From a virus, in IMG/VR virus record IMGVR_UViG_3300008114_000042, positions 34,865 to 98,864 of that record: 64,000 nt of DNA. One strand, 5' to 3'. Position 1 is the stretch's first letter; every line of letters starts with the position of its first letter. The notes under the pieces were generated by a model, which was not told the DNA's origin, ran no database searches, and saw nothing but the letters and a program-made list of their open reading frames with translations. This document shows positions 5,235 through 48,520 of this stretch, piece by piece. A program made the position numbers and the translations under genes.

Positions 5235-5894
5235 ATGTCGATTATTACAGGTCTCAAGGCAATGGAAGCCGCTATGACCACTAAGGAATACACCAACGAC
5301 GGCCCGAAGGTCCGTTGGGTGAAGTTGGAGGATAGGCAGGTTGTCAAGGCTCGTCCCATCAATGAACTTGATGAAGATTCCAGCAACTATGACCCCTCAC
5401 GAGGTCTTACAATCGTAGTCGTGGAGCACACTAACCCCAAGGACTACAAGAAGAAGGCTGTCTGCACGATGGACACCGAAGGTCGCTGCTACGGCTGCGA
5501 GATGAACCAGAAGGACCCCAAGGCTGGCTGGTATGGTCGCAAGCGCTTCTACATCAACCTGCTCGTAGACGACTCACTTGAGCCTCCCTACGTCGCAGTC
5601 TGGTCACAGGGGCTTGGAAAGCAGTCCTCTGTTCCTACCCTCGTGGAATACTACCACGATACTCAGGCTATCTCCAACCTCTCTTGGAAGTTGAAGCGTC
5701 AGGGCTCTGGCACGGACACCACCTACGTCCTTTTGCCTACCGTTCCCGACACCGAGCCTTTCGACTGGAAGGGTATTGAGCCCTTCCCGCTGGACAAGGT
5801 TGTCCGACAGATTCCTTATGCGGATCAGGAGTCGTTCTACCTTGGGTTCGATAGTGCTCTCTCTTCTGCCACCTCTACTTCCGTAGACTGGTAG
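5235..5894 (+). CDS. single-stranded DNA-binding protein (gp32-like)
   Basis: 'H...C...CYGC' Zn motif, 'KRQGSGTDTTY', C-terminal 'DW' tail; position in replication module. Confidence 0.8.
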   Translation: MSIITGLKAMEAAMTTKEYTNDGPKVRWVKLEDRQVVKARPINELDEDSSNYDPSRGLTIVVVEHTNPKDYKKKAVCTMDTEGRCYGCEMNQKDPKAGWYGRKRFYINLLVDDSLEPPYVAVWSQGLGKQSSVPTLVEYYHDTQAISNLSWKLKRQGSGTDTTYVLLPTVPDTEPFDWKGIEPFPLDKVVRQIPYADQESFYLGFDSALSSATSTSVDW

Positions 5895-9500: not shown

Positions 9501-9788
9501 GCCACAAGCAAGTCAGCCTTCGTAAGGTTCCTCAATTACAAGCAACTACCTTACAGTGAAGGAGAATACTATGTTCTGGCTTTTAAGCGGAGGGTGACCA
9601 AAGCGGGAGCGAACATGGCTACTCTAATTGTATCCAATTCCAACAGAGAGTTGCGGAGCGTTGTTGTATTCAGCCGAGAGTTCCCAGACGCATACACGCA
9701 CCTTGATGAGGGAAAGGCATTCTCCATTGACTTTGGAAAGACCAAGGATGGGGACCTAACCTACAAGGGAGTTCTTACTAATGCTTGA
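6480..9788 (+). CDS. dnaE: DNA polymerase III alpha subunit
   Basis: PHP 'HLHSHFS', 'TDHG'; 'GPGRGSAAGS', 'PDIDSD', 'YSFNKSH'; C-terminal OB folds. Confidence 0.97.
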   Translation: MANENSTAPSNNYVPLHLHSHFSLMDGVSTTEEYVSRAIDNGMRGIAITDHGTLSGHRAMYRAATSAGIKPVLGIEAYFTPDRKDRRDYDERTTPLDKVYNHLIILAKNNKGLANLNKMSEISWNDGFFKKPRIDFELLEKYGDGLIISSACMGGLINQAIEQDELAVAKGHLKWFGDRFGDDFYVEVMPHNPAYINQTLIELADHGGHKIIVTPDCHHATVDQKIIQEVMLINNTHPKQVKDTTYAKAAKIDNLMDRLDYLYDKDRKLTFNKFDIHLLSADEMREAMENSGGFREDMFSNTEEILDKVEDYKMPRNLNLLPTEYQKPADELRRLAYEGLAERGFADNPEYVARLDEELSIIHDKGFEPYFLVVRNMLNWARKQGIMVGPGRGSAAGSLLSFCLYITDIDPIPHGLLFFRFIDPSRDDFPDIDSDIQDSRRDEVKAYLEAQYRHVASIATYQEFKDKGVVRDVARVFNVPLSDVNRALKSVDVWEAFAFSRSTAWFREKYPEVVTVAEQLRGRIRGTGIHAAGMVTAKSPISKVAPMETRVDPASKERIPVVAVDMEEAADIGLIKIDILGLKTLSVIDDTLKTIKERWGKTIDLHSIPMDDKKVYEMISAGHTKGIFQCEAAPYTNLILKMGIRNFDELVASNALVRPGAMNTIGKSYVARKHGKQDISYASPLMKAFTEETYGTILYQEQVMLACTELGGMTMEQANKVRKIIGKKKDAKEFDEFKELFIRNASGPLGGAAAEKMWHDFEAHAGYSFNKSHAVAYSTLSYWTAWLKHYYPLEFMFCVLKNEKQAKDRTPYLIEAKRMGIPLRLPHINESDLDFKIEGKAIRFGLTSIKFLSDKVGGRYIDNRPFHSYEQVKEFTLTKGNGVNTRALSALDAVGAVAFPDNPRDENRVRSNLYEYLELPEFATDIPSHIHAFMDNCDDFDEKGVFIFMGVVRDIKRGMGWARVEILDATGSVGVFDDPQTTIEKGKQYLFLVGSNRVVEAIPVDEIATSKSAFVRFLNYKQLPYSEGEYYVLAFKRRVTKAGANMATLIVSNSNRELRSVVVFSREFPDAYTHLDEGKAFSIDFGKTKDGDLTYKGVLTNA

Positions 9789-10790: not shown

Positions 10791-11796
10791 TCTGCTGGAA
10801 GGAGTCCTTGCTGGACTTAATCCAAAACTAAGAAAAAGAATAACGCTCGGAAGTGAAGTCCCAAGAGTAGAGTTTGCTCCTACTCCCAGTGTTGGATTGA
10901 ATCATGCCCTCAACGGAGGCTTCCCCTATGGACGACAGATACTCGTATGGGGAAACAAGTCAAGCGGCAAGTCATCGTTCTCGCTACAAACCATCGCCGC
11001 CGCACAGAAAGAGGGTAAGGTATGTGCTTGGATAGACGCAGAAATGGCATTCGATCCAGCGTGGGCTACAGCGTTAGGTGTAGACGTAGAGACCTTGATC
11101 GTTTCCACCGCACGCACGGTCAACGATATGGTAGATGTCTGTACGGAACTCCTTAAGTCCGGGGTAGACATTGTAGTCGTTGACTCTATTTCTGCTCTCA
11201 CTCCTGCCATTTACTTTGAGAAAGATAGTGGAGAACTCAAGCAGTTGGAGAATACCATGCAGATCGGTGCAGAGGCAAAGGATATGGCGCACGCAGTCAA
11301 GATGATTAACTATGCCAATAACCAAGTCAAGCAGTCAATGATTATACTTATCAGTCAGGCACGCAACAACATCGGTCAGATGTATACAAAGCAGGAGCCT
11401 ACTGGTGGCCTTGCCGTGAAGTTCTACTCATCTACTATCGTTAAACTGTTCAGCAGCGAGAGCGACAACCAAGCGATCAAGGGAAAGATTTATGTCGGAG
11501 ACAAGATCATTGAAGAAAAGATTGGACGTAAGGTACGGTGGGATGTCCAGTTCAGCAAGACTTCGCCAGCCTTCCAGACAGGAGAGTACGATTTCTATTT
11601 CAGGGGGCAAAGCGTTGGTGTTGACTCCGTTGCAGATTTGGTTGATACATCAGAACTACTTGGCTTTATCGAACGAGCCGGGGCATGGTATACAGTTGAC
11701 TCTCAACGTTACCAAGGTCGTGAGCGACTTGTTCTCGCTGTAAAGGAAGACCTAGGACTACAGGAAACCCTACTAGAGAAGATCAAGAATGCGTAA
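10783..11796 (+). CDS. recA: RecA-like recombinase
   Basis: 'GGFPYGR', Walker A 'GNKSSGKS', 'IDAE', 'VVVDSI', 'TGGLAVKFYSS', 'GAWY'. Confidence 0.95.
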   Translation: MSDLLEGVLAGLNPKLRKRITLGSEVPRVEFAPTPSVGLNHALNGGFPYGRQILVWGNKSSGKSSFSLQTIAAAQKEGKVCAWIDAEMAFDPAWATALGVDVETLIVSTARTVNDMVDVCTELLKSGVDIVVVDSISALTPAIYFEKDSGELKQLENTMQIGAEAKDMAHAVKMINYANNQVKQSMIILISQARNNIGQMYTKQEPTGGLAVKFYSSTIVKLFSSESDNQAIKGKIYVGDKIIEEKIGRKVRWDVQFSKTSPAFQTGEYDFYFRGQSVGVDSVADLVDTSELLGFIERAGAWYTVDSQRYQGRERLVLAVKEDLGLQETLLEKIKNA

Positions 11797-11944: not shown

Positions 11945-12088
11945 TGGAATTCTTATTCATCATAGCAAGCAATGACTTCAAGGCGGCAGCCCGTAGGGCA
12001 GCAGAGATGGACCTCCATATCACTGAATGGGAATGGTGTCCTATCCGCACCGTGCAGAATGCTGTTGTCGTCTTCCTCAGGACAGACG

Positions 12089-12427
12089 ATGACAAACTAT
12101 AACAAGCATGAACAAGCAGAGACAAGGCGCTTGGGTGGAAAGACACACAAGAACAGCGGCAGGGGCCAAGTCAAGGGCGATGCATCGTGGAGAGATTTCA
12201 TTGTTGACTACAAGTTTTCAAACAGGTCGGTAACCGTAAACCAAGAGATGTGGGCGAAGATAGTAACCGATGCTATGAAGACTGATAGGTCGAAGTCTCC
12301 GCTCCTTGTCCTCGTTATAGGCGAGGGTAGTCACAAGATACGCCTTGGCGTACTAGAACTCTCTGTCCTTGAAGAGTTGACTTCCGAGAACCAAGATGGT
12401 ATAATAGTGCAAACAAAGGAAGAGTAA
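12089..12427 (+). CDS. Holliday-junction resolvase-like PD-(D/E)xK nuclease
   Basis: 'NSGRG..KGD...FIVDYK' motif. Confidence 0.75.
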   Translation: MTNYNKHEQAETRRLGGKTHKNSGRGQVKGDASWRDFIVDYKFSNRSVTVNQEMWAKIVTDAMKTDRSKSPLLVLVIGEGSHKIRLGVLELSVLEELTSENQDGIIVQTKEE

Positions 12428-19386: not shown

Positions 19387-19608
19387 ACCCAGATGCGCAC
19401 CTCAACATCCCCGCCGAAGGCGTGGTCATTACCGTAGAGCGGGATGCCTCAGGGAACTATATTGGCAAACTTTGGATAGACGGAGAGCGCAAGGCGTTTG
19501 CCACAGAGCGACGACCGGGATGCGCTGCCCGTACCATGATGCTAGCAATGCAGGGTACATGGGGACCTCCAAGCGATACCATGTACCTTACTGTTGACGG
19601 GTGGTAGT

Positions 19609-19935
19609 ATGGACTCCGAATACGTTGAGTACCTTGAGTCTATCGGTGCTATTGAAAAAACCGGGGTAGACGAAAACGGAGAGCCAGTATGGAGAGTGAC
19701 GAAGGAAGCAAAGGAACTTGTTCCTGACCTTTACAACGCTCACCTCAAAGAGTTCAACAACAACGTATTCTCCCTGTGGATGAAGGACTTTATCGACATA
19801 GAGTTTGATAAGGAAGGCTCACCCCTCATCGCCCTGAATGAAATATCATTAGTCTTAGAGGCACACGCCATGCTTGAGCCCTCAGAAGAGCAGGTATTGA
19901 TGGAGATAATTGAGAATGTTTCCAAACCGGATTGA
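19609..19935 (+). CDS. hypothetical protein
   Basis: Acidic ORF 'YLESIGAIEKTGVDENGE'. Confidence 0.55.
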   Translation: MDSEYVEYLESIGAIEKTGVDENGEPVWRVTKEAKELVPDLYNAHLKEFNNNVFSLWMKDFIDIEFDKEGSPLIALNEISLVLEAHAMLEPSEEQVLMEIIENVSKPD

Positions 19936-22181: not shown

Positions 22182-22385
22182 ATGCTACCCCCGCCAATCG
22201 ACACCAGAGATTTCCCCAGCGCCGCCTGTCTTAACTGCGGAGGCGACCTTTTCATTGCTAAGGTCATCTTTGATGATGACTACAATATCGGTATGTATAT
22301 GACTGAGGGCGAGTGCGCCTATTGCCATTCGCTCGTCAGGCTCCCTACCCCACTAGACCACCCCGACTACGAAGAGAGTTACTGA
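22182..22385 (+). CDS. small zinc-ribbon protein
   Basis: CxxC...CxxC, 'PTPLD'; own promoter. Confidence 0.65.
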   Translation: MLPPPIDTRDFPSAACLNCGGDLFIAKVIFDDDYNIGMYMTEGECAYCHSLVRLPTPLDHPDYEESY

Positions 22386-36050: not shown

Positions 36051-37055
36051 TTACAGGCCAGCGACCTGCTTAACAATCCCAAGGAGCCGGTTCTTCTCCG
36101 CATTCGTGGCGGCATCAAAACCAGAGGCAGCAGCCAGAACGGCGGTTGCGTCACCCTTGCGGGGGTTCCTGTACCAATCCAGTCGTTCGGTCAGGGCATT
36201 CAGGCATCCCCACGCAGTACCGGCGATCATGCCGTTAGTCTCACCAGTGTAGATAGAGTTGATCGTGTCAACCTTCTTCTCCCACTTGGAGAACGAGCCC
36301 TTAGCATCCTTGTCAGGAACCGGGTAGGCAGCGGTGATGATGTCGAAGAACTGCTTATCGCTAATCTCCTTGGCAATCATCTCAGCAGCCTGCTTGTCGA
36401 ACTCATCCATGTAGGCGTGAGCCAGACCAAGAGCCTCACGAGCAGCAGCAATACGGCCCTCAAGAGTCTGAGTGTGACGGATACGGTAGGACTGCTTTGC
36501 AGCCTTGCCACGAGCGCCAACAGCCATGTTGAGCGTGTTCTGGCAGACCACACGGACGGGGGTAACGCTGGCCTGAATAGCAAGCGAGCCGTCATGCGAG
36601 GTATGAACCAGCAGGTAAGACTTCACCTTATCACTGACACCCTTGGGGTCAAGGACAGTCTCACGCTCAAGAGCGAGGGAGCCGAACACGACGGTACCAT
36701 TCTTGATAGCGCCAGCAGTCTCCCAGCGAGCACCGTCAAGGATGTTATCACCGAAGGCAAACAGTTCCTCATTCTGGAGCACCTTGTAACGCTCGCCCAC
36801 GACACCAAGAACGTCCTTCTGAGAACGGTCAAACGGGTTGGTGCGAACGGTAGAGAACCAGTCCTTATGACTGTTGGTATTCTTAGGGAACTTGATCGGC
36901 TCAAGCCGAACGTTCCAATCGTTGAGGTGTGCTGCTGCCAGCATTTCCTCGGTAGTGACCTCATCCTCAAGGATGGTGCCCAGACCATGCCATGCAGGCT
37001 GACGCAGGGAGGCGAAGGTCGCCATATCCTCGTACTGCTCAAGCATATGTGCCAT
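36051..37055 (-). CDS. DUF932-family phage/plasmid protein
   Basis: 'PAWHGLG', 'LQN', 'SHDGS', 'RVVCQNTL', 'TAWG..NA..E..DW'. Confidence 0.88.
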   Translation of the reverse strand: MAHMLEQYEDMATFASLRQPAWHGLGTILEDEVTTEEMLAAAHLNDWNVRLEPIKFPKNTNSHKDWFSTVRTNPFDRSQKDVLGVVGERYKVLQNEELFAFGDNILDGARWETAGAIKNGTVVFGSLALERETVLDPKGVSDKVKSYLLVHTSHDGSLAIQASVTPVRVVCQNTLNMAVGARGKAAKQSYRIRHTQTLEGRIAAAREALGLAHAYMDEFDKQAAEMIAKEISDKQFFDIITAAYPVPDKDAKGSFSKWEKKVDTINSIYTGETNGMIAGTAWGCLNALTERLDWYRNPRKGDATAVLAAASGFDAATNAEKNRLLGIVKQVAGL

Positions 37056-39041
37056 TTTGTTACTTCCTTTCGTGAGGGACAATCCCTCGTTGTTGTTATA
37101 GTCTAAGTATACACGATCCGGCGCAGGTTGTCAAGAGGAAAATTCATTTTTCCTGCGATATTTTTAGTTAGTCCGTAATCCGTTTCGGGCAGGGTGTCCG
37201 GTTTGACCCAGTTTGGGGGAGGATCGAATGTCCGTTTTGCCCGTTTTGGGTGTCCGAACTGTCCGATTCTCCCCTTTTTGCTACTCTAAGTATACCGGAC
37301 TTGGAAACCATTGTCAATGTGAGATAGATCACACGGGGCGCGGGTAGGGTTAGGGTACCCTTACTCCCTATTCAGTGCAGCCTCAGCATAGAAGTCCTCA
37401 TAGCCCATCATAGGCTCATCAAAGGATGCCTTCATCTCGGCATGGTCCTCGTCTGTGAGGTCTTCCCACATTGTCTCGGGGTACTCATAGGGATCACCGT
37501 AGTAGCCGTACTGCTCATCAGTACCCCAGCCACACGACTCCATCACGAAGTCAAAATCGTCATTCATCGAACGTACCAGTCCTCATCAGAAATATTGCTA
37601 CGGGTAATGGGGGCCAGCATCTCAAAGCCCCACAGAGCGGTGGTGCGCTCGCCACACACCGGGCAAGGACCATAGGCAACGTTGGTCCAGTCCTCCCCAC
37701 GCTGGTGGATGCCAGCGAAAGGCATGGCGTTGTGGAGGCCACGACCCTCATAGGCGCACTCTACACAGTCGATAGTGGCGGGGCTGTGAACCGCTTCCTT
37801 GGTCTCATTCATAGTTCTACTATAGCATCGATGGGGGCTGTAGTCAAGTCCTGAGAGTGTGATGTGTAACACACGGGGGCGCGGGGCCTACTCGTCCCCG
37901 AAGCCCCACGAGTCAAGGGAATCCTCATCGAAATGACCCCGCATCATCTGCTCAGTGTACCAGCCTTGAGCGTCGAAGCCGTCTGAAAACTCGAAAATAG
38001 CCATTATTTTCCCTTTCTGTTGACACTACAATACCACATAATTGCTCTGGGAGTCAACTTCTGGTGTTGTGATGTCGGTCACAGGGCGGGTCGCGCCCCG
38101 CAAAAAGTATTTGAGTAGTTTTACATCATACTCAGGATGTTGGTCGAAAGGAAAGAGGGAAAGGTACCTCACATCTTTCGTCCATTCCCCACTATGACCA
38201 GTAGTGAGGAAGTTGAAGGCCACCTTTATCCCCTTGCTTGGGTGGCATATGGTAAGAGTCTTATCTCTATCTCATAGAGTGGGGTCTTACCGTTTTTTAA
38301 TTAGACAGTAACGTTGGCACGGATGCCCCGTGGGAGGGTAGAGAAGATAACGTCGTCATTGACGGTCATCTCCACGATCTTCCGACCGTTGTGCTTGTGG
38401 ATATCTAGAACGGTACCACGGAGGCCCGAACGGGAGGTACGGTAGGTGTCGCCAACCTTGACTGACTTGGGCTTGCTCGGCATATGTATTCCTTAGTGCT
38501 GTAGTGGGTCTTTCTGATGACTCAAGTATACCGGATACCGGCGCTATTGTCAAGTCACGTTTCGGTAACGCTACTCTTCGTAGTCGGGACTATCCAACAC
38601 AATACAGGGAAGCGTATCGGTATCAGATACCTCAATAGACTTAAACTCGGACCACTCATCTAACAGATGAATGATGTACCCGCTGCCGGTGGGAAACATG
38701 GAATTAATGACGTACTCACTGCCACGGATAATTACCCTGTCCCCTACTTCAAGCGAATAGACTTCTATTCTATCAATGACCTTCATGCGCACCCCCCAAA
38801 CAACGGGGTATAGAAATAGATGTGAATGTCTAGGGTTGACTTCCAGAGTGAAATCCAGTCCCCAAACTCATCCCCATCGACATAGCACAGGAAGTCGTTA
38901 TCAGTGTAGACGATCCATTTGTCCTCGTCATCATCATAGGGCATTTCATAGACGTGTGCGTTCATCCGAACCACAGCGCCAAAAAGCCGGTAGCCATGAG
39001 AACGATGTTTTCCAACAGGAAGGGGGGAATTTTAATCTTCA

Positions 39042-39287
39042 TTACTTATCCCTACTAAAACCGTTGTCGGTCTCATCAATAGTATCTTGGGCAAACCCAA
39101 TGAGGCTTGCCTCAAACTTGCGTGCATGATGAGCACAGAATTGCAAGGGAAGACCCTTCTTGTTTGCCACCCGCACCCATGCTCGCTGAATACAACGGTC
39201 GCAACGGTCCATCAAGGAAAGGACAGGGGCAGGAGGGACAGGCTCATAATCGGCGTTGTCGATAAGAGTCTGAACAGGACTTCCCAT
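39042..39287 (-). CDS. small Cys/His actinobacterial-type protein
   Basis: 'DRCDRC..RAWV...LQFCAHH'. Confidence 0.65.
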   Translation of the reverse strand: MGSPVQTLIDNADYEPVPPAPVLSLMDRCDRCIQRAWVRVANKKGLPLQFCAHHARKFEASLIGFAQDTIDETDNGFSRDK

Positions 39288-39864
39288 TAGATTTCTCCTC
39301 TCAGAATAGCAGCCTTGATATAGTTAAGGTCAGAGGTATTGTCATAGGTATACTCAAGGATTTGATTGAGCACGCTTGCCTCATCAGGAGTAACCATGAG
39401 GGTGGCATAGACAAATTCAGTATTCGGCATTACGGTGCTTGGCCTTCCTAGTATACTTGCTCTTATTACGATGGGGCTGGGCAGCATTGGACCGGCGAAG
39501 GTCCTGCCAATACTGCACTTCCTCACGGGTCTTCTTTCTTGTTTTCATCATGGTAATACTTTACCACACTTTTCGTTGGATGGGAAGAGGCAAAACGGAC
39601 ATTGGAGTGTGATGATTGTCACATTGGACCGCGCCCCGCCTCAGATTTTTACCCTACAGCACTCAACGCATCAGCAATATCATACTTGACATTCTTTAAT
39701 CCGATAGTCACAGTCTCTATGCGATCCTCTGCGTTCTCATTCACAAATGCAAGACTCTCAAGACTGTCAATGATCTTGTTGACCTCATTTGCCGCACGGT
39801 AGAGAGCGTGACGCATAGCAAACTGAGTCTCAGTAAGTTCCTTGTTAGACTTCACCGGAAATCA

Positions 39865-40257
39865 CTATTTCCTTTCATCGTTCCAGCGCTGGATGCAACT
39901 CTTGCACCTACGCCTACCATCTACATATTTTGTGTTCTCGTCATTGTATGGGTGCCCCCACTTGCAATGGGTCTTGGCTTGGTTGGCGTGTCGGCCCTTG
40001 GACACCATATCTCCAACGTTGTCAGCAGGAGAGCCTGCTCGCAAGTGCCGTGGATTCACACAGGAACGATTATCACACAGGTGCATAACAACATCGGGCC
40101 ACTCTCCATAAGTCAGGAAATATGAGAGTCTGTGTGCCTTCCAATAGTTGTATTGTCCATACCCGCCGGGATTGACATACCCTGACCACTCCCAACATTC
40201 ATCGGGAGCCCCCATGACTACCCTCGCCCAGAACCGGGCAGGAGCCTTAGAATACAT
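39865..40257 (-). CDS. HNH endonuclease (HNH_3-like)
   Basis: 'CWEWSG...GYG...AHRLSY...H.CDN..CVNP.HL...N..D'. Confidence 0.88.
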
Positions 40258-41039
40258 CTGAAACATCCAGAATCTCAAAGTCCTCAGGAGAAAACTCCTC
40301 ACGACTACGAATGTAGTCTAGGGCAGCATCCCTATTGGGGAAGGACCGCTGAAAGACGTTCAGGTAGTAAACTCTATACTGACTCATTGTTCTCACTTTC
40401 ATAGTTCATCTTAGAAGGCTTACGACAGTAGGAGCACACCCACTGTCCACTATTGGGGTCAAGTGTCCATCCATCCTTGGCACTATGACCCTTCGTACTA
40501 CCCTCACACCACGCTGTCATCGGCTTTGCAGCCTTGTAGTGATAGTATCAATGAGAGCGGAACAGCGCTGCTCAATTTCTTTGAGGTACTCCACCGCCTC
40601 CTCATCTTCACTGCACGTTCCCATGAGGTCCACAGCATTTTCCATACGGTCGTTCAGGGTGTCTGCAATGAAGTGCCAGACATCCTCCCGAAACTGAATA
40701 CTCACGGGCAAGGCGGGGGACCTTCCAATAATCTCGTAGTCATCAAATGTGGTGCCGTCGCCAGCCAACTCAACACGGCTGTTAATCTTCTCAACAGCAT
40801 CCTCCCATGAGCGGGTAGAGAATACAGGGCGACCTAGGAAGTGAACCTCATAACTCATGCGAGTGTCCCCACAAACTCTACGTCAACCAACTTGGTTGCA
40901 ATGGAAGGATGCACACCCTTGATAACGTCAGCCACGTCATGCAGGTCGTTCTCTTGGATAATGGTTCGATCCTGATTGTTAAATCGGTAAGTGATAACCC
41001 AGACGTTCATTGTGTAACCTTTCGTTGTTTCTTGGTTTT

Positions 41040-43755
41040 ATTCTAGCAGGGGGGTCTGACATTGGAGGCTTGGAAATGCTATCAAATCGGACAGGTTGTA
41101 TAACGAGATGGTAACAGAGTTATCCACAGATTTCCCAAGTTATCCACAGGTGAAAAGTTGTTTAGTACCAACAACTTTCGGCCCTCACCATGGACTACGC
41201 CCATAGCCAATAACCGTTATATCCCAACGCTTTTGGACTGCCCCATTCTCAGCCATGAATGCATCAATGAGTTCATCAGGCACATAGCCATAGACAGAAG
41301 TGCCACCAATGCTACCGTCGTGGTAGTCAGCGAACGGCTCAATGGGATCGCATACCCATTTGCCATTGAGGAAGAAAGCAATCTCACTAGAGATACCCTT
41401 GCGGCACATATGGTATTCGCTGTTCTGCACACTGATCTCATCAGCCTGCGGGTGAACGATAGTGTAAGTAGGCATTTATGCTCCAATCGCATTGTGAATG
41501 ACAGCGCCATTCTCTACGGAAATGGTCAGGGTATTGACGTAGGTATCGCCATTCCAAATCTCAATGTCGATAGTCTGGTCAGTATCGAATGACCACACCT
41601 TAGCGGTGATGGTATCGACTACTGCCTCTGCGAAATCATGCTTGGTAATCATTGTGTTTCCTTTCTACCAGCGTCCGAATGACTTGACAGGCTCACGATC
41701 CCCAAGAGCGGAGCGGAGTTCGATAGAGCCGCAATCCCGCATGGAGACTGGCGTACCGTCAATCTCAACCCAGAAACGACCCTGACGGTGCTTAGGCATC
41801 CAAGTGACGATGCCCTCCATTCCACCAGAAGTGAAAACGTGGTCGCCAACCATGAGGTCGGTAGTGCAAATGCGGATCATTTTCTTACCTTTCTTGTTTC
41901 TTTCTATACCCTCATCCTAGCAGAGGGGTCTGACATTTAGTTCGGGGGAATCGGGTGATATCGGACACCCAATCAGAACCGTTACCTAACCGTTACTTTC
42001 GGTTGAGGTAGCCCTTGTGAGGGCAATCACGACGGTCATGGCGACTGTCGCAACCAGAGCAGAGAATCTGAGTCATTGTCTTTCCTTTCTTTCTATGCCA
42101 TCAGTCTAGCAGGGGGGTCTGACATTCTTGGCCTCAGAATGTGTGCAAAACGGACACACGCAGAAAAAAGTTTATGTGATGAATCTCACAGGACGGGCCG
42201 CGCCCCGACCCTCAGGAGTTGTTTAATCCCAACACTTATTCTCCCCAGAAGTCGTCAAGCAGTACCCGGCAGTCGTTGCACAGGTGTCGTTCGGTGCGAG
42301 TGTTGGCAACAATTCCAAGCGCAACAGTCTCTACCTGCATCCAGCCAACAGCATCGCAACTGTTGGGACTCACTGTTGTCTCGCACACGTTGCAAGTGAT
42401 CCAGTCTATACGCTCATGCCACCTCACAAAATATCCTCTTCCTCTTCGCACTCACCTTCAATAGTCAGGTCGGGGTACTCATAGCCTTCACCGAGGTAGT
42501 AGCAGTAGTAGTCGAATGCTGATTCGCAGAATGCGGTCTCAACCAAAACCCCATCACGCTTGCTAACGATGCTATGCATGACTAGAACGGTGCCTTCCAG
42601 TATTCCTTGCCGTCTACGACAACGTAGTCAGCGTCCTCAATGGGCATGAGTGGCTTAGTCTTGGTCGGCTCATCAATGAGAGTAGTGAAGTGCTTGACGT
42701 TGGCGGTAGGGACATAGATGATGTCCATATCCTTATTGTCTACCTCCCAAGAGATGTAGGCAGCCTTGACGATCAGGCTATCCTCCACAACGTGAGCATA
42801 GACGCCTGCGGTACCGTCCTGAAAGAAAATCTGAATACGCATTGTGTGAATCCTTACTTGTGAGAAGAGCAGTGAGCGTGCCCATGCGAGCACTCGAAAT
42901 AACCGAAGTCGATATCCTCATCCTCAAGCATGAGGGAGGCATAGACGTTTTCCTCTTCCTGACGGGCGAGGACGTATGAACATTCATTGTCCATATACTC
43001 CCATGAAGAGCCACAGCAGCAGCCGCCCTCATTGAAGTCAAAGTGATGAGAAATGTTAGACATTAGCGTCCATCCAATCCCACACGTCAGCGATGACGTG
43101 CGTGTTGCGAGTGAGTGAAGAGCAAGTACCCATGTAGGTTGCAGAGAAGCGGCGGGACTCCTCAACGTGATCGGCGTAAACCTCAACGTCATACTCCCCA
43201 TCAGAGTACGGGCCGAACACAAAAAGCGTGAACGGCAGCCGACCGAGAGCGGTGTCGTGATAGATATGGAAGGTTGGGAGGGTCATTGTATAGCCTTTCG
43301 TTTGTTTCTTAGTTTCATTGTAGCAGGGGGGTCTGACATTCAGACAGGCGAATGTCCGTTATGTCGCATTTCGCCTAGTGTGACAAGAATCACAATGGGG
43401 GTCTGACAGTCGGAACTTGTACGACCCATGGCGGGGACGGACAATGAAAGTAAAGGTAGTGCCATACATGGTGAATGACTCCACACGGTACTGAGTATGC
43501 TCACGCCCATGGCGGCTAGATGCCTTGAGGACACGGTAGTTCTTACGCATTACCGTCCATCCCCCACATCTGCTCCCAATAGTCCTCATCCTCGAAGTCA
43601 TCCCAAGCCTCACGGCTCTGAATGATGAGTTCGCACTCAGGCAGATCGAAGATATCAATGTCTGTGGTGATGCGACCACAGGCGCTCTTGACTGTGACGA
43701 AGGTTGACATTCCTTGTCCTTTCTCTTGATCGAAGTCTAGCAGAGGGGTCTGACA
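41040..43755 (-). promoter_or_regulatory. five TGTCAG-N10-TAnnnT promoters (PafBC/RecA-NDp-like)
   Basis: 41040-41061, 41914-41935, 42103-42124, 43317-43338, 43734-43755; degenerate copy ~43387-43408. Confidence 0.8.
41120..41148 (+). promoter_or_regulatory. two perfect DnaA boxes
   Basis: TTATCCACA at 41120 and 41140. Confidence 0.7.
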
Positions 43756-43756
43756 G

Positions 43757-44155
43757 TCACCGTGACCGATGGGCACGATTGCGTTCATTCTTGCATAGGC
43801 GACAGGTCTTGTCCCCACGCTTGTTGTGATACCAGTTCTCAGGCATCCATTCATGGCCCCGCACACAATGGGTCTTGTTCTGCCATGCAGCACGGCCACG
43901 GGTGATCATGTCGGCGGTATTGCTCAGATTGGACCCCTCCTGCAAGTGACTAGGGCGAACGCATCCACGATTGTCGCAGGTATGACGAACAAGGGTAGGC
44001 ATCTCCCCATAGTAGAGAGCATAGACAAGCCTATGCGCTCTATAGGTTTCGCCATTCATCTTGATCCTTCCATATCCTGAAACAAACTTAGATCCAGTCC
44101 ACTCCCAGCAATCGCCAGAGGTGTCTACCTTGTCCAGAATGGTGCTAATGTCCAT
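43757..44155 (-). CDS. HNH endonuclease (HNH_3-like)
   Basis: 'CWEWTG...GYG...AHRLVY...HTCDNRGCVRPSHL'; leaderless after TGGTATAAT. Confidence 0.88.
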   Translation of the reverse strand: MDISTILDKVDTSGDCWEWTGSKFVSGYGRIKMNGETYRAHRLVYALYYGEMPTLVRHTCDNRGCVRPSHLQEGSNLSNTADMITRGRAAWQNKTHCVRGHEWMPENWYHNKRGDKTCRLCKNERNRAHRSR

Positions 44156-44403
44156 AGTGACCATTATACCATCCTTTAGACAAGTTCGGGCACAAGCGAA
44201 AGAAGACTGCCCTCCTCGCCCAATGTTTCTACGTTTGCAACCCTGCCATAGAAACACACATGGTCAGTAGGGTCACCAGCGGTAACCACACGAACAGACT
44301 TACCAGAGGTAAGATGGACCAAGTAAACGAACATTGTCTAACCTTTCTTTCTACCCTTAGGGTACCACAGGTAGGTGCCAGCCCCTATTGAAGATTTGAT
44401 GAG

Positions 44404-44475
44404 CGGAACCAACGGGGATCGAACCCGTGTTACCACCGTGACAGGGTGGCGTGTTAACCTCTACACTATGATTCC
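44404..44475 (-). tRNA. tRNA-Asp (GUC)
   Basis: ccacc-ctGTCac-ggtgg. Confidence 0.92.
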
Positions 44476-44476
44476 T

Positions 44477-44551
44477 TGGCTGGCATGGGAGGATTCGAAC
44501 CTCCAACCTTTCGATTAACAGTCGAACGCACTGCCGTTGTGCTACATGCCA
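44477..44551 (-). tRNA. tRNA-Asn (GUU)
   Basis: ttcga-ctGTTaa-tcgaa; encoded CCA. Confidence 0.92.
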
Positions 44552-44556
44552 CAGAG

Positions 44557-44628
44557 TTGGGGTACATGGATTCGAACCATGAATGACAACGTATCAGATT
44601 GTAGTGATGACCTTTTCACTATACCCCA
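44557..44628 (-). tRNA. tRNA with GAU (Ile) anticodon on a Gln-like body
   Basis: tggggta/tacccca acceptor; acaat-ctGATac-gttgt; A73. Confidence 0.7.
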
Positions 44629-44633
44629 TGGAG

Positions 44634-44705
44634 AGCCTAGAGAAGGAATCGAACCCTCAACCAACGCATTACAAGTGCGCCGTTCTACCATTGAACTACC
44701 TAGGC
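44634..44705 (-). tRNA. tRNA-Thr (UGU)
   Basis: gcgca-ctTGTaa-tgcgt. Confidence 0.92.
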
Positions 44706-44710
44706 AAGAG

Positions 44711-44781
44711 TGGAGATACAGGGATTTGAACCCCGAACGATTGCTTGCAAAGCAACTGTGATACCTTTTCACCATATCCCC
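44711..44781 (-). tRNA. tRNA-Ala (UGC)
   Basis: ttTGCaa loop; G3:U70. Confidence 0.92.
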
Positions 44782-44798
44782 GTCGTCTGGGCCGCTAG

Positions 44799-44869
44799 TG
44801 GGGGCACAGGGAATCGAACCCCGATCTGCTGATTAAGAGTCAGCGGTTTTACCGTTAGACTATACCCCC
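44799..44869 (-). tRNA. tRNA-Lys (CUU)
   Basis: gctga-ctCTTaa-tcagc. Confidence 0.92.
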
Positions 44870-44874
44870 GAAGT

Positions 44875-45305
44875 GTGTGTGGTAGGAATATTCTCAGGCT
44901 TCCCTACCTTCCCGGTGACTGGCCTATCCCTTGCGGGTGCTACTGAGAGCCGGGGGTTCAAGGGGATTACTATAGGCATTGGTGGCGAGAACCTCATTTA
45001 ACATTGAACGTGTCACTATTTGTACCTACTACCCTTGTGTTTTGGGGTTTCGGGGACTAGGCTAACCCGGTCTAACCGGAGCGTTCGTTCCACCCTTCTG
45101 AGTACCATTGCCACTACGGCTTTCCTCAGTTTTCCCAAGTTTGTGAGCGGATTCTTACCGCTTTCAGATTTCGGTCTGTGCGTGCCTAGCGTTTCTAGTT
45201 TCGACTGGCGCATCCTGTGCTTTCCAATTCCCAACTAGTGCTTCGGGGCTTTCAGACTCCCAATCTGCGCTTCCTAGCGCTTCTGGATACTCTCTATTTT
45301 CTTAT
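44875..45305 (-). ncRNA. candidate large structured ncRNA upstream of tRNA cluster
   Basis: Own promoter, no credible ORF, many hairpins and GAAA/GCAA loops. Confidence 0.6.
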
Positions 45306-46497
45306 GTCTTAAGAGTACCACACTTTGGTCTGGTTTGCAAGTCCTGAGGCTTATTTGCTGTGTGAGGCTCATCACATTTTCTGTGCTTACTTGCTCACGC
45401 AGGCTCATCCTTGACCTTGCTCACTCTCTATTTTCTTATACCTTAAGGTTACCACGGATGGGGGCAGAAAGCAAGTTGAAAATGCATACAAAACGGACAA
45501 CTTTATGTGATGTGTGTCACAACGGGTCGCGGCCCCCGTTAATATTCCTGACTATACACCTGCTCAGCAATATCCTTGTATTCAGCCTTCATTAGATACC
45601 CCTGCTCAATAAGCATATCCAGAGCGCTCAGTACCATTTCCCATGATCCACGAGGCATCTCTACTCTAACCACAATATCTTCCTTCTCCATACCCTTGCG
45701 GAATCAGCGTAACGAAACCATCGTTGGCATCGTCATTAGTAAAAACAGCGTTGATAAAGCGTAGGCCGCATGACTCGTCATACCAGTCTACGATATCCTT
45801 GAGGTTGGGAGCATATGTCTCATAGTCCCATTCCTCCATTTGCCTAACCTGCTCATCATCCATAGACAGGTAGATTTTATGACAACCGTCAAAATGCATA
45901 CCCTTCGCATTACGGAGCATTTGCTCTACCAGCCACCAGCGGTCATCCATTGTATTCCTCCATTGCCTGAGTGTATGAGAAGTCTATTACCTCATACTCT
46001 CTAATAGCCCCATCATTGCTATTGTATGTCTGAATGAATAGTGGGCGGCAGTCAAGGCATCCCGCTACTCCACACCCGCCGATTAGTGTGCGTTCGATAG
46101 TCATTAGTAGTACCGTCCTTCATTCATCATTTCATCGGTAGGGTAGTGGTAAATAGGATGGGCGCAAAGCCATGCAGACATGCCATGCTCGCAGATATCC
46201 TCCTCAGGATCGGGAGGATATTCCATATTATCCATTTGATATGCCCCCAATAGTCCACGGTAGTCATTATCTACAGACTCACAAGGGAATTCGTCAGTAA
46301 TCATTAGAATACACTCCCACACACGAGACAGATAGCCTTATACCTAGGTTCGATATCCTCGCAGCCGATACACGGCTCCCACGGTAGGTCGGGGAAATAC
46401 TTATAGACAAATTCTTCGACAGCCCTCTGGCCCTTATCTTGATAGATAGCGTAGCAAACGTCATCCAGACCGATAGTGTCATCCATGATTATTTTCC

Positions 46498-47244
46498 TTA
46501 TTTCTTTGATCGTGAGAATGAGATATTGGCCTTATTATCAACGCATAGACGGCAGACACTACAGGCGCTACCCTCGGTGCTAATAAGGGGAATTTGCTTA
46601 CGCTGCTCAGGACAGATAGCACCGGGCCTGCCGGTAATATCCTTGACAGCCGCCTGACTTTCTGCAAAAGTCTCAGCAACGAAAGCGACCTTAATTCCAT
46701 AAGTACGGTAGAGCATATCTGCTACCGGCTTATTATTGGGGTCGCCACTAAAGTAAAGCGACAGATTAGGCAGATTAGCCTTGTGCAGCCTGACGGCAGC
46801 ATTAGCATTACGGGTATAGACCCAGAATTGGATATGCGGGTACAGGATGATAATGTTAATCCATGCCTCAATATAGGTTTCAGAGAAAAAGTCCCCGTCC
46901 CAATGGATGCGATAAATACGCTCAGAGCCCTTTTTCTCAGACTTAGTATCGAATTCCCAGATAAGGGCGTTCAGCATATCGAAAGTGTCGATAAGGTTGG
47001 CATCCTTAAGGGCATTGTAATTGTGGAGCATGGCAGCCCCGACACCCTTAAAAAGGTTTTCCAATTTGCCAGCGTAGCAAATTAGTTCGCAATATTCGGT
47101 AGCACCGACGCAGGAATAGTCAATTCCATTGGCAAGGCCCATAGTATTTGAGAAAGCGGCCTGCTTTCCATTTTTAGTAACGCAGGAAGCCACTTTCCGG
47201 TCATTAGAAGCGGCTAGGACGGGGAGCATTGTTTTCGTAGTCAT
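46498..47244 (-). CDS. Gp88-like Cys-rich protein
   Basis: 'SCVGAT..C...CYA', 'RIHWDGDF', 'WVYTR', 'CP...C..C..C'; leaderless ATG 47244. Confidence 0.75.
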   Translation of the reverse strand: MTTKTMLPVLAASNDRKVASCVTKNGKQAAFSNTMGLANGIDYSCVGATEYCELICYAGKLENLFKGVGAAMLHNYNALKDANLIDTFDMLNALIWEFDTKSEKKGSERIYRIHWDGDFFSETYIEAWINIIILYPHIQFWVYTRNANAAVRLHKANLPNLSLYFSGDPNNKPVADMLYRTYGIKVAFVAETFAESQAAVKDITGRPGAICPEQRKQIPLISTEGSACSVCRLCVDNKANISFSRSKK

Positions 47245-47856
47245 AGGTGTAACTATACAGGATAATATGGGTATGGTCAAGGGGCAAAACGGACATTGGC
47301 GTGTGAGTAATATCACAGGGGGCGCGGCCCCGGCAGGGTAGTCAGGAGGGTAGTGTAGCAAGGTAGCAGGTAACAAGGTCATAGGGTACAAGGGTGTAGA
47401 ACACAGAGTGTCCATGGTCCCTTACCACTACAGCCTCATGGTCAGCGAAGAAGGGCACAAGGGTAGCGCTAGCACGGTCATGCTTAAAGAACACAACGGT
47501 ACAGTTGCGAGGGTAGTTGTATACCTGAAACGACGTATGCTCATCCCCCTCTGGGAGGTAGTGCTGTACCCTACCTACCCTAGTAGTCATATCCACCACA
47601 GCACCACATGCAGCCTTCCTTGTGGTCATCCTCATCCTGTACCTTCTCTTCTTCAATGTCAAGGTAGTCCATGATTCCATCAGTAATGGAGTAGTACCTA
47701 TCCTTGCGATGACGGATTTCGTTAGTCCATTCTCCATCACCCTTGTACCGTCGCCATGCTACGTCGGTATGCCAGTTAATGTGTGCCTCACCATGCTTGT
47801 CCTTGACGTATGCTATCTGCACACGGGCAGGGCGAGTCTTATCAGTCTTGCTCATA

Positions 47857-48321
47857 CTAGTCCTCCCATGAGGGTACTACGGTAGTGGGGATACCATGCT
47901 CTGCCCAGAGGGCCAGCACAGCAGGGTTGTCATCAATGGCATGGATCACATCGTACTCCTGCTGTATGCGGTGGAGTATGTCACTCTTGACATCGTAGTC
48001 AGGGCGACCGTCCTTGTCCCCTCGCATGAGCATGAGGTCTGACGGTACACCATGAAGGGCGAGCCACCATGCTGTTGCATGACGGTACATAGCACGCCTA
48101 GCAGTAACGATGATGATGGTAGTACCTAGCATGTGTGCCCTATGCACCTGATCCACCACATGGGCATGAGCAGGCACGTTGACGCTCTCACTATGAAAGG
48201 CATGGAAGTCCTTGTGCCACCCCTTAGGCTTGGGGGTAGGGGGAAGGATGTAGTGCCTGATACCACTCACATCGGCAAGGGTACCGTCCATATCAACGAT
48301 CATAGCCTGTCTCTTACTCAT
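47857..48321 (-). CDS. HAD-family phosphatase (PNKP 3'-phosphatase-like)
   Basis: 'IVDMDGTLA', 'VTAR', 'MR...D.R.D..VK', 'IDD'. Confidence 0.88.
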   Translation of the reverse strand: MSKRQAMIVDMDGTLADVSGIRHYILPPTPKPKGWHKDFHAFHSESVNVPAHAHVVDQVHRAHMLGTTIIIVTARRAMYRHATAWWLALHGVPSDLMLMRGDKDGRPDYDVKSDILHRIQQEYDVIHAIDDNPAVLALWAEHGIPTTVVPSWED

Positions 48322-48520
48322 AGTCTAAGACTACAGCATGGAGAGGGATAAGTCAAGTTGTGATGGTGTGATGATTGTCACAGACAATATAGGCGCACTA
48401 AACGCTGACGCATAAAGGACAAATAGGACGTATCGTACAAATAGTCTCAAAATTAAAGTTTGTCGATATTAATAAACAAAATAGTGAGAAGTAATAAAAA
48501 TAGTGTGATATAATGGGTAT

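Follow-up and report, generated by a model that had tools for sequence, protein, structure and literature searches.

The question raised by a stretch of DNA from the virus record IMGVR_UViG_3300008114_000042 (IMG/VR) is why one arm of it should carry a series of copies of the palindrome TGTGA-N6-TCACA, a sequence of the kind recognised by the cyclic AMP (cAMP) receptor protein (CRP), and which protein might bind them. The stretch analysed (the window, 64,000 nucleotides) corresponds to positions 34865-98864 of that record, which is complete at 98,864 bp and has direct terminal repeats. The arm in question lies on the minus strand at about 32.2-48.4 kb and holds some 50 small open reading frames (ORFs); it is presumed to be early because of its gene make-up and its strong sigma70-type promoters. 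The palindromes, referred to here as boxes, are putative binding sites that are restricted to this arm, stand in helical phase with core promoters, behave as the sites of a protein and recur in unrelated phages of actinobacteria. The binder that we favour would be a CRP-family regulator supplied by the host.

Nine perfect boxes are present in the window where 0.15 would be expected from dinucleotide shuffles, none of 100 of which reached nine. All nine were recovered exactly where an earlier note, made from the letters of this DNA, had placed them, and the chance expectation of 0.06 given there is the figure for uniform composition (64000/4^10). No other perfect box is found anywhere in the 98,864-bp genome, and all nine lie inside one 11-kb portion of the minus-strand arm. 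The single-mismatch box reported at 37858 is also real, and further one-mismatch sites beyond that list are found at 42016 and 49577, the former being a possible eleventh box although it could equally be a chance match. The boxes have to be read in the direction of transcription, which here is that of the minus strand. Read in this way, the gaps of 0, 10, 20, 21 and 31 bp between box and -35 hexamer, and the distances of 40 and 50 bp between two of the boxes and a TGTCAG promoter, are as the earlier note had them (Table 1). Assignments of -35 and -10 are consensus matches and the start positions are predicted; four of these promoters (37317, 37847, 38057 and 47280) were also picked out independently by a consensus scanner. 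Measured from box to -10, the distances at the ten sites are 23, 33, 33, 34, 43, 44, 44, 54, 56 and 66 bp, giving a Rayleigh R of 0.91 at a period of 10.5 bp (p about 5e-5, or 4.5e-4 with duplicates collapsed). The two TGTCAG promoters are about 2 bp out of phase with the others.

Further evidence for phasing came from 100 related viral loci that were retrieved by means of two conserved genes of the arm. Over 1.68 Mb these loci contain 446 perfect boxes, compared with five for reversed-sequence controls and none with swapped half-sites, and the complete relatives (99-116 kb) carry four to eight boxes each, restricted to one arm of about 9 kb. Among 315 unique boxes in the relatives, 204 precede the sequence TGTC(A/G)G-N10-TAnnnT, and box-to-(-10) distances in these loci peak at 33-34, 44, 54 and 64-65 bp. 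The period over 319 unique sites (phage and relatives together) is 10.3-10.6 bp, and with repeats of one spacing in one orthologue group collapsed to a single count, R is 0.52 at 10.5 bp, the highest value reached in 2000 null trials being 0.345. Members of a single orthologue group differ in spacing by whole turns (34, 44, 54 and 62 bp, for example), while equally long spacers taken from different groups show just 37-46% identity with the shared promoter elements included. It is therefore length, and hence helical phase, that is conserved and not an inherited cassette. The claim of the earlier note that the boxes lie on one face of the helix, with a period of about 10.3 bp, is thus strongly supported both in the phage and in its relatives.

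The motif itself has the properties of a protein site of the CRP type. The logo of the 315 unique sites in relatives reads TGTGA(T/G)nT(A/T)n(A/C)TCACA and is symmetric, including positions 6 and 11, with uninformative flanks. Unique 5-N6-5 palindromes with TGTGA number 297, whereas all 15 compensatory single-pair variants together number 24, which is background. Among one-mismatch sites, changes at T3 and G4 are at background but A5->G is found at 90 sites and A5->T at 50, and position 1 also varies. The box is a 16-bp dyad with symmetric half-sites, a fixed GTG/CAC core and degeneracy at positions 1 and 5, and in these respects is what is looked for in a CRP/GlxR-type site. The CRP motif of Mycobacterium tuberculosis is (C/T)GTG(A/G)-N6-... 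with no contribution from the flanks, and binding of CRP(Mt) is abolished by change of G4 or C13, whereas the paralogue Cmr prefers 4C/13G (PMC5758884). GlxR is 79% identical to CRP(Mt) (PMC5758884) and shares its consensus, a closer match to which gives more binding and higher promoter activity in Corynebacterium glutamicum (PMC7999487). The mismatch tolerance and flank pattern of the phage boxes, judged from their sequence, match this published behaviour of actinobacterial CRP/GlxR sites. Crp/GlxR is the known actinobacterial protein with this box specificity. When 301 Actinomycetota genomes were sampled, 206 were found to have at least one perfect box, and a hand tally over all 301 put the boxes at about 700 and the reversed controls at about 75, or roughly ten to one. 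Ten of the genomes tallied are flagged as unpublished (G132, G013, G185, G236, G060, G248, G030, G094, G273 and G100); the aggregate contrast is independent of them and no single claim rests on them.

The gene content of the phage offers little that could bind such a site. A Pfam search of about 149 ORFs from the whole genome returned WhiB as the sole transcription factor, with no helix-turn-helix (HTH) protein of XRE/Cro/CI type, no sigma factor and no RNA polymerase. No match to the CRP-type HTH domain (HTH_Crp_2) or to the cNMP_binding domain was found in the phage, and a phage-encoded CRP was rejected on these grounds. When 53 early-arm ORFs were compared with 89 box-bearing loci, no homologues were seen except GP88 and DUF932, both of which occur also in box-less relatives and in box-less cultured phages; the early genes are otherwise wholly different between the phage and these loci and the box grammar is the same. 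Comparison of all ORFs with four complete box-bearing genomes and with the box-less genome G001 left one small ORF with the right distribution. This acidic 113-residue orphan (19594-19932, beside the terminase gene) is a poor candidate as it lies in the late arm and has no family match.

The viral collection was also scanned for a box followed at 10 bp by TTGAC. Outside the family, this pattern was found in four complete WhiB-encoding phages of 39-48 kb and 42-59% GC: G335 (GC 59%), with five boxes within 3.4 kb, G338, with four, and G337 and G339, with two each. The chance expectation for genomes of this type is about 0.05-0.1 boxes per genome. All that these phages have in common with the phage of the window is WhiB, one 67-residue ORF that does not track with the boxes and a short repetitive match. 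In those of their boxes that the scan pattern had not selected, the distance to a -35 hexamer is 9, 10, 20 or 30 bp. The same motif with the same phasing is thus present in at least three lineages of actinophages that are unrelated and range from 36 to 59% GC, and a conserved host protein is therefore the simplest common cause. A binder encoded by the phage looks, on all these grounds, unlikely.

Taken together, these data suggest that the boxes would bind a dimeric CRP-family regulator of the actinobacterial Crp/GlxR type, supplied by the host. Bound on one face of the helix, whole turns upstream of the core promoter, the dimer would contact or wrap RNA polymerase and so modulate, and most likely boost, expression of the small-gene arm including its tRNA cluster. 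The start of infection would thereby be coupled to a global regulator of the host. That the binder is a conserved host factor, and most likely Crp/GlxR itself, appears to us on balance probable; we infer not only the identity of the protein but also that it is host-encoded, cAMP-responsive and activating.

Several observations weigh against this explanation, in whole or in part. The core promoters are near-consensus, with -35 hexamers TTGACA, TTGACT or TTGACC, 17-bp spacers and TAnnnT at -10 (10-11 of 12 matches), and on that account an activator should be unnecessary; the weak, activator-dependent core that typifies Escherichia coli class I and class II promoters is not what is found here. 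Two arm promoters that are equally strong have no box (TTGACA-17-TATACT, 11 of 12 matches, at 38525-38553 and 37106-37134 on the minus strand). The box would therefore be a modulator of these promoters and not a requirement. With the -10 hexamer taken as -12 to -7, the predicted box centres fall at about -43.5, -53.5, -64.5, -74.5 and -86.5, the commonest being about -53.5. The E. coli class I/II series lies at about -41.5, -61.5, -71.5, -82.5 and -92.5, so that the phage centres are 2-3 bp off it, and to our knowledge E. coli CRP does not use a position of -53.5. The statement in the earlier note that the arrangement is as expected for cAMP-CRP is consequently not quite right. In addition, the family includes a minority class with a distance of 49 bp, half a turn out of phase, and A is avoided at position 6 of the phage boxes but present there (TGTGAA) in many of the cellular sites listed from the sampled Actinomycetota genomes.

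Other difficulties concern the distribution of the boxes and of CRP. Of the relatives, L025/G001 is the closest in gene content, with about 15 early ORFs in common, and no box is present in 76 kb of its sequence. A substitute palindrome was sought in box-less relatives and not found; the same slot in L025/G001 is occupied by GTTA(C/T)-N6-GTTA(C/T) direct repeats of response-regulator or GlnR-like geometry. This exchange fits adaptation to another host regulator but also a swap of a regulatory module of the phage. Cultured Streptomyces phages of BE type and one mycobacteriophage, all from hosts that have Crp, show box counts at background only, and the boxes are therefore characteristic of certain lineages, not of actinophages as a whole. 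The host for the CRP argument is placed only as an actinobacterium and its CRP is presumed. No canonical CRP was found in any of 13 streamlined Actinomycetota genomes (1.3-1.4 Mb), which may or may not belong to host lineages: one has an FNR-like helix, one high-GC genome has a CRP-family protein, in one a cNMP domain stands alone next to an adenylate cyclase and seven of low GC have neither domain. It should accordingly not be assumed that every small actinobacterial genome encodes a CRP. The identification with CRP made by the earlier note is the likeliest reading, supported by the motif, the mismatch pattern, the lack of a recognisable phage binder and the recurrence in unrelated phages, and weakened by the streamlined genomes without CRP and by the cultured phages without clusters.

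What else might account for the boxes has to be considered in the light of the same data. The palindrome could form a hairpin in DNA or RNA, for instance as part of a terminator, with the phasing a relic of duplicated promoter cassettes. Such a reading has in its favour that a G+C-rich quasi-palindrome, placed where the preceding unit ends, adjoins seven of the boxes and that the TGTCCGTTTTG module is common to several promoters. A stem of just 5 bp without compensatory variants is, however, hard to reconcile with it, as are the symmetric base preferences beside the half-sites and the lack of flank conservation in relatives. The ratio of 297 TGTGA palindromes to 24 compensatory variants largely excludes a hairpin function, none of the boxes having been called as a terminator, and inheritance by cassette is rejected on the whole-turn jumps inside orthologue groups and the unrelated spacers of equal length; we regard this explanation as extremely improbable. 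It might instead be supposed that the boxes are operators for a small dimeric protein of the phage, unrecognisable from sequence and made early, that shuts off or retunes the arm in the manner of phi29 p4, the phiC31 repressor at its conserved inverted repeats (CIR) or the proteins of mycobacteriophage stoperators. Many small phage regulators escape Pfam and dozens of orphan ORFs are present in this phage; the different repeat in the slot of the closest relative would be expected if regulatory modules were exchanged, and cultured relatives that lack boxes on Crp-bearing hosts, together with streamlined actinobacteria that lack CRP, are easily accommodated. Set against these points are the failure of the searches described above to find an HTH, Cro/CI, sigma or CRP-like gene and the fact that no phage protein co-varies with the boxes, the acidic late-arm ORF being the sole candidate. 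The identical motif in unrelated lineages also speaks against a phage protein. The first promoter of the arm is itself boxed, so that an activator would be needed before any phage gene is expressed, and sites centred 43-86 bp upstream would leave the core promoter unoccluded. Operator arrays are co-inherited with a cognate regulator encoded by the same phage, and no such pairing was found here. An operator function of this kind seems to us unlikely.

A host protein might also bind the boxes without being a cAMP-dependent activator, as would be the case for a ligand-independent CRP/FNR paralogue, for a repressor or trap of RNA polymerase, or if the boxes served to titrate the protein. Near-consensus promoters should be strong unaided and the box positions depart from the activation rules of E. 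coli, both of which would be understandable in these circumstances; one study, going by its title, reportedly has it that an actinobacterial CRP is not regulated by ligands. A pure titration sink, on the other hand, would not need strict helical phasing, and the G4/C13 core is of CRP-type and not Cmr-type specificity. Moreover, GlxR activates from a site of this consensus in C. glutamicum (PMC7999487). We consider such a role for a host protein rather unlikely, and an activating regulator of Crp/GlxR type remains the explanation that best fits the motif, the phasing and the distribution among phages.

Comparison with known systems brings out both what is familiar and what is unusual in this arrangement. 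The class I and class II CRP promoters of E. coli (lac, galP1) likewise have a 16-bp TGTGA-N6-TCACA site upstream of a sigma70-type promoter with distances that step by whole turns, and one phage site abuts the -35 hexamer. They differ in having weak cores where those of the phage are near-consensus, and the phage sites have predicted centres shifted by 2-3 bp, include an abundant -53.5 class and stand in series along one arm of a lytic-looking actinophage. The Crp/GlxR regulons of M. tuberculosis (Rv3676), C. glutamicum (GlxR) and Streptomyces (Crp) have the same consensus, GTG/CAC core, tolerance at position 5 and uninformative flanks (PMC5758884, PMC7999487). The phage is itself an actinophage, with its WhiB and RecA-NDp-like promoters, but its sites are nearly all perfect palindromes and reach about 800 boxes per Mb in the arm against about one per Mb in the sampled Actinomycetota genomes. 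The CIR of phiC31 and the stoperators of cluster A phages are present as many copies of a short site across intergenic regions of a regulatory arm, and phi29 p4 acts from phased upstream positions. The phage similarly has many short intergenic sites, often near the end of the preceding unit; unlike those systems it has no findable cognate regulator, and its motif is common to unrelated phages and to cellular CRP regulons.

A further resemblance is to the promoters regulated by PafBC. The spacing TGTC(A/G)G-N10-TAnnnT is that of the RecA-NDp motif (tTGTCRgtg-N8-TAnnnT). Actinobacteria in general have conserved this motif, which is not a palindrome (PMC6789036, PMC8223512). The same spacing is found under two of the phage boxes and under the 204 boxes of relatives mentioned above. 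A WYL (PafBC) protein was sought in the phage and none was found, and dependence of these promoters on PafBC is putative. We know of no description of a RecA-NDp promoter type paired with a phased CRP-type box, and a search for published accounts of CRP-type boxes on actinophage promoters found none.

The arrangement might reflect something more general. Actinophages of several unrelated lineages could have first promoters built around a modular upstream slot for global regulators of the host, its occupants being the CRP-type dyad, GTTAC-type direct repeats, DnaA-like boxes and the RecA-NDp/PafBC element. By such a slot the phage would sense the energy, nitrogen, replication and DNA-damage state of the host and set the strength with which infection begins, and the occupant would be exchanged when the host changes. 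We put this forward tentatively and as a doubtful extension. If host Crp/GlxR does gate the boxed promoters, then abundant freshwater actinophages tie the start of infection to host physiology by way of a borrowed regulator, and this would offer a testable handle on infection in relation to host nutrient state in lakes and a sequence signature for assigning actinobacterial hosts. It would also make available more than 300 natural promoters displaying spacing rules of CRP type on actinobacterial RNA polymerase that differ from the E. coli rules.

The placement of the host depends on the genes of the phage. Its DnaE-type polymerase is about 53% identical to those of Streptomyces phages of BE type (Stanwilliamsviridae), and it encodes in addition a DnaB-like helicase, a primase, a terminase, long tail fibres and WhiB. 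Homologues of its GP88 are found almost exclusively in Mycobacterium and Streptomyces phages and homologues of its WhiB only in phages of actinobacteria; the host is therefore, on this gene evidence, an actinobacterium, with no finer placement. A megablast search of the arm against cultured phages gave no match, and no close cellular relative of the phage WhiB was found. The only matches to a WhiB profile were contigs (L138-L146) that had been binned into metagenome-assembled genomes of assorted phyla (labelled Polynucleobacter, Saccharibacteria, Acidimicrobiaceae, Chitinophagaceae, Methylococcus, Bifidobacterium and Arenimonas). Their WhiB is 40-53% identical to that of the phage and the contigs look like mis-binned phage. 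Inspection of small genomes sorted by GC and of two orders did not reveal a recognisable acI-like host group.

Table 1. Boxes, predicted promoters and neighbouring features of the boxed arm, in window coordinates; for the boxes, the strand is that on which they are read; distances are from the box to the upstream end of the predicted promoter.
Feature	Position	Strand	Distance (bp)	Predicted promoter or remark
Perfect box, most upstream in the arm	48367-48382	minus	10	-35 of the next entry
Promoter, sigma70-like, TTGACT-17-TAGTCT	48328-48356	minus		would drive the first operon; first gene HAD/PNKP-type phosphatase (47857-48303)
G+C-rich quasi-palindrome, GGGGC-CGC-GCCCC type (minus strand)	47318-47333			abuts upstream side of the box below
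Perfect box	47302-47317	minus	21	-35 of the next entry; TGTCCGTTTTG between, at 47285-47295
Promoter TTGACC-17-TATAGT	47252-47280	minus		ahead of the GP88-family gene
Perfect box	45506-45521	minus	31	TTGCTT-17-TAACCT (45446-45474); TGTCCGTTTTG at 45489-45499
Perfect box	45361-45376	minus	20	TTGCAA-17-TACTCT (45312-45340)
Six tRNA genes (Lys, Ala, Thr, Ile, Asn, Asp)	44403-44869	minus		served by the promoter at 45340
Perfect box	43379-43394	minus	40	TGTCAG-N10-TACAAT (43317-43338)
Perfect box	42175-42190	minus	50	TGTCAG-N10-TAGACT (42103-42124); TGTCCGTTTTG at 42146-42156
One-mismatch site, CGTGA half-site on the transcribed strand	42016-42031	minus	80	TGTCAG promoter at 41925
Perfect box	39608-39623	minus	21	TTCCCA-17-TAAAGT (39558-39586), TG before -10; TGTCCGTTTTG at 39591-39601
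Perfect box	38068-38083	minus	10	TTGACT-18-TATTGT (38028-38057)
One-mismatch box, A5->T	37858-37873	minus	10	TTGACT-17-TATAGT (37819-37847); substitution tolerated across the family
Perfect box	37318-37333	minus	0	adjoins TTGACA-17-TATACT (37289-37317)
DUF932 gene	36051-37055			further downstream of the 37318 box, behind a second, box-less promoter (37106-37134)
Similar G+C-rich quasi-palindromes	45522-45540, 42191-42211, 39624-39642, 38084-38101, 37874-37888, 37334-37349			

Along the direction of transcription the units of the arm have a common order in which the end of the preceding gene is followed by the G+C-rich quasi-palindrome, the box (0-2 nt further on), the spacer and the core promoter, the last being either a near-consensus -35/-10 pair or TGTCAG-N10-TAnnnT. 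None of the quasi-palindromes has a T tail, because of which they were not called as terminators by the scanner; they may be the ends of preceding transcription units. In four cases the spacer contains the 11-mer TGTCCGTTTTG, which stands 6 nt past the box in three promoters and 18 nt past it in the fourth. This sequence is confined to the arm within the genome (37229 on the plus strand; 39591, 42146, 45489 and 47285 on the minus strand), and relatives have TGTCCGATTT in a comparable place, at +6 or +7 after the box. A second repeated sequence, TGTCAGACCCC, is present in six copies on the minus strand (41051, 41925, 42114, 43328, 43398 and 43745), each with TAnnnT 10 nt past its TGTCAG.

Pfam matches in the arm are limited to the HAD/PNKP phosphatase, GP88, DUF932, DUF7455, endonuclease VII and two HNH endonucleases. 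The GP88-family ORF extends over 46498-47415, and since homology begins only near residue 54-67 the true start is probably near 47244. Ahead of the tRNA genes, the boxed promoter at 45312-45340 would give a leader of about 430 nt (44875-45311) without a credible ORF, and the boxed promoter at 45446-45474 stands in tandem just upstream of it.

Some minor features of the slot in relatives may be added. Pairs of sequences with the DnaA-box consensus, TTATCCACA and TGTGGATAA, lie directly upstream of some boxes in low-GC relatives (L005, 3296-3335; L013, 2700-2745; L014, 2660-2710). The GTTA(C/T) repeats of L025 are located at 9690-9765, 10900-10972 and 12040-12114 and also at 5600-5800, and sit between a CGCGCCCCGC element and the -35 hexamer or TGTCAG; a GTAAC-N6-GTAAC pair is present in the phage itself (41975-41995). 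The 67-residue ORF noted above (22182-22382, plus strand) is 35-44% identical to counterparts in G338 and G339 (unrelated 40-kb WhiB phages), in G010 and in the box-less G001, is not present in G006, G008 or G009, and from this distribution appears to be a small mobile gene.

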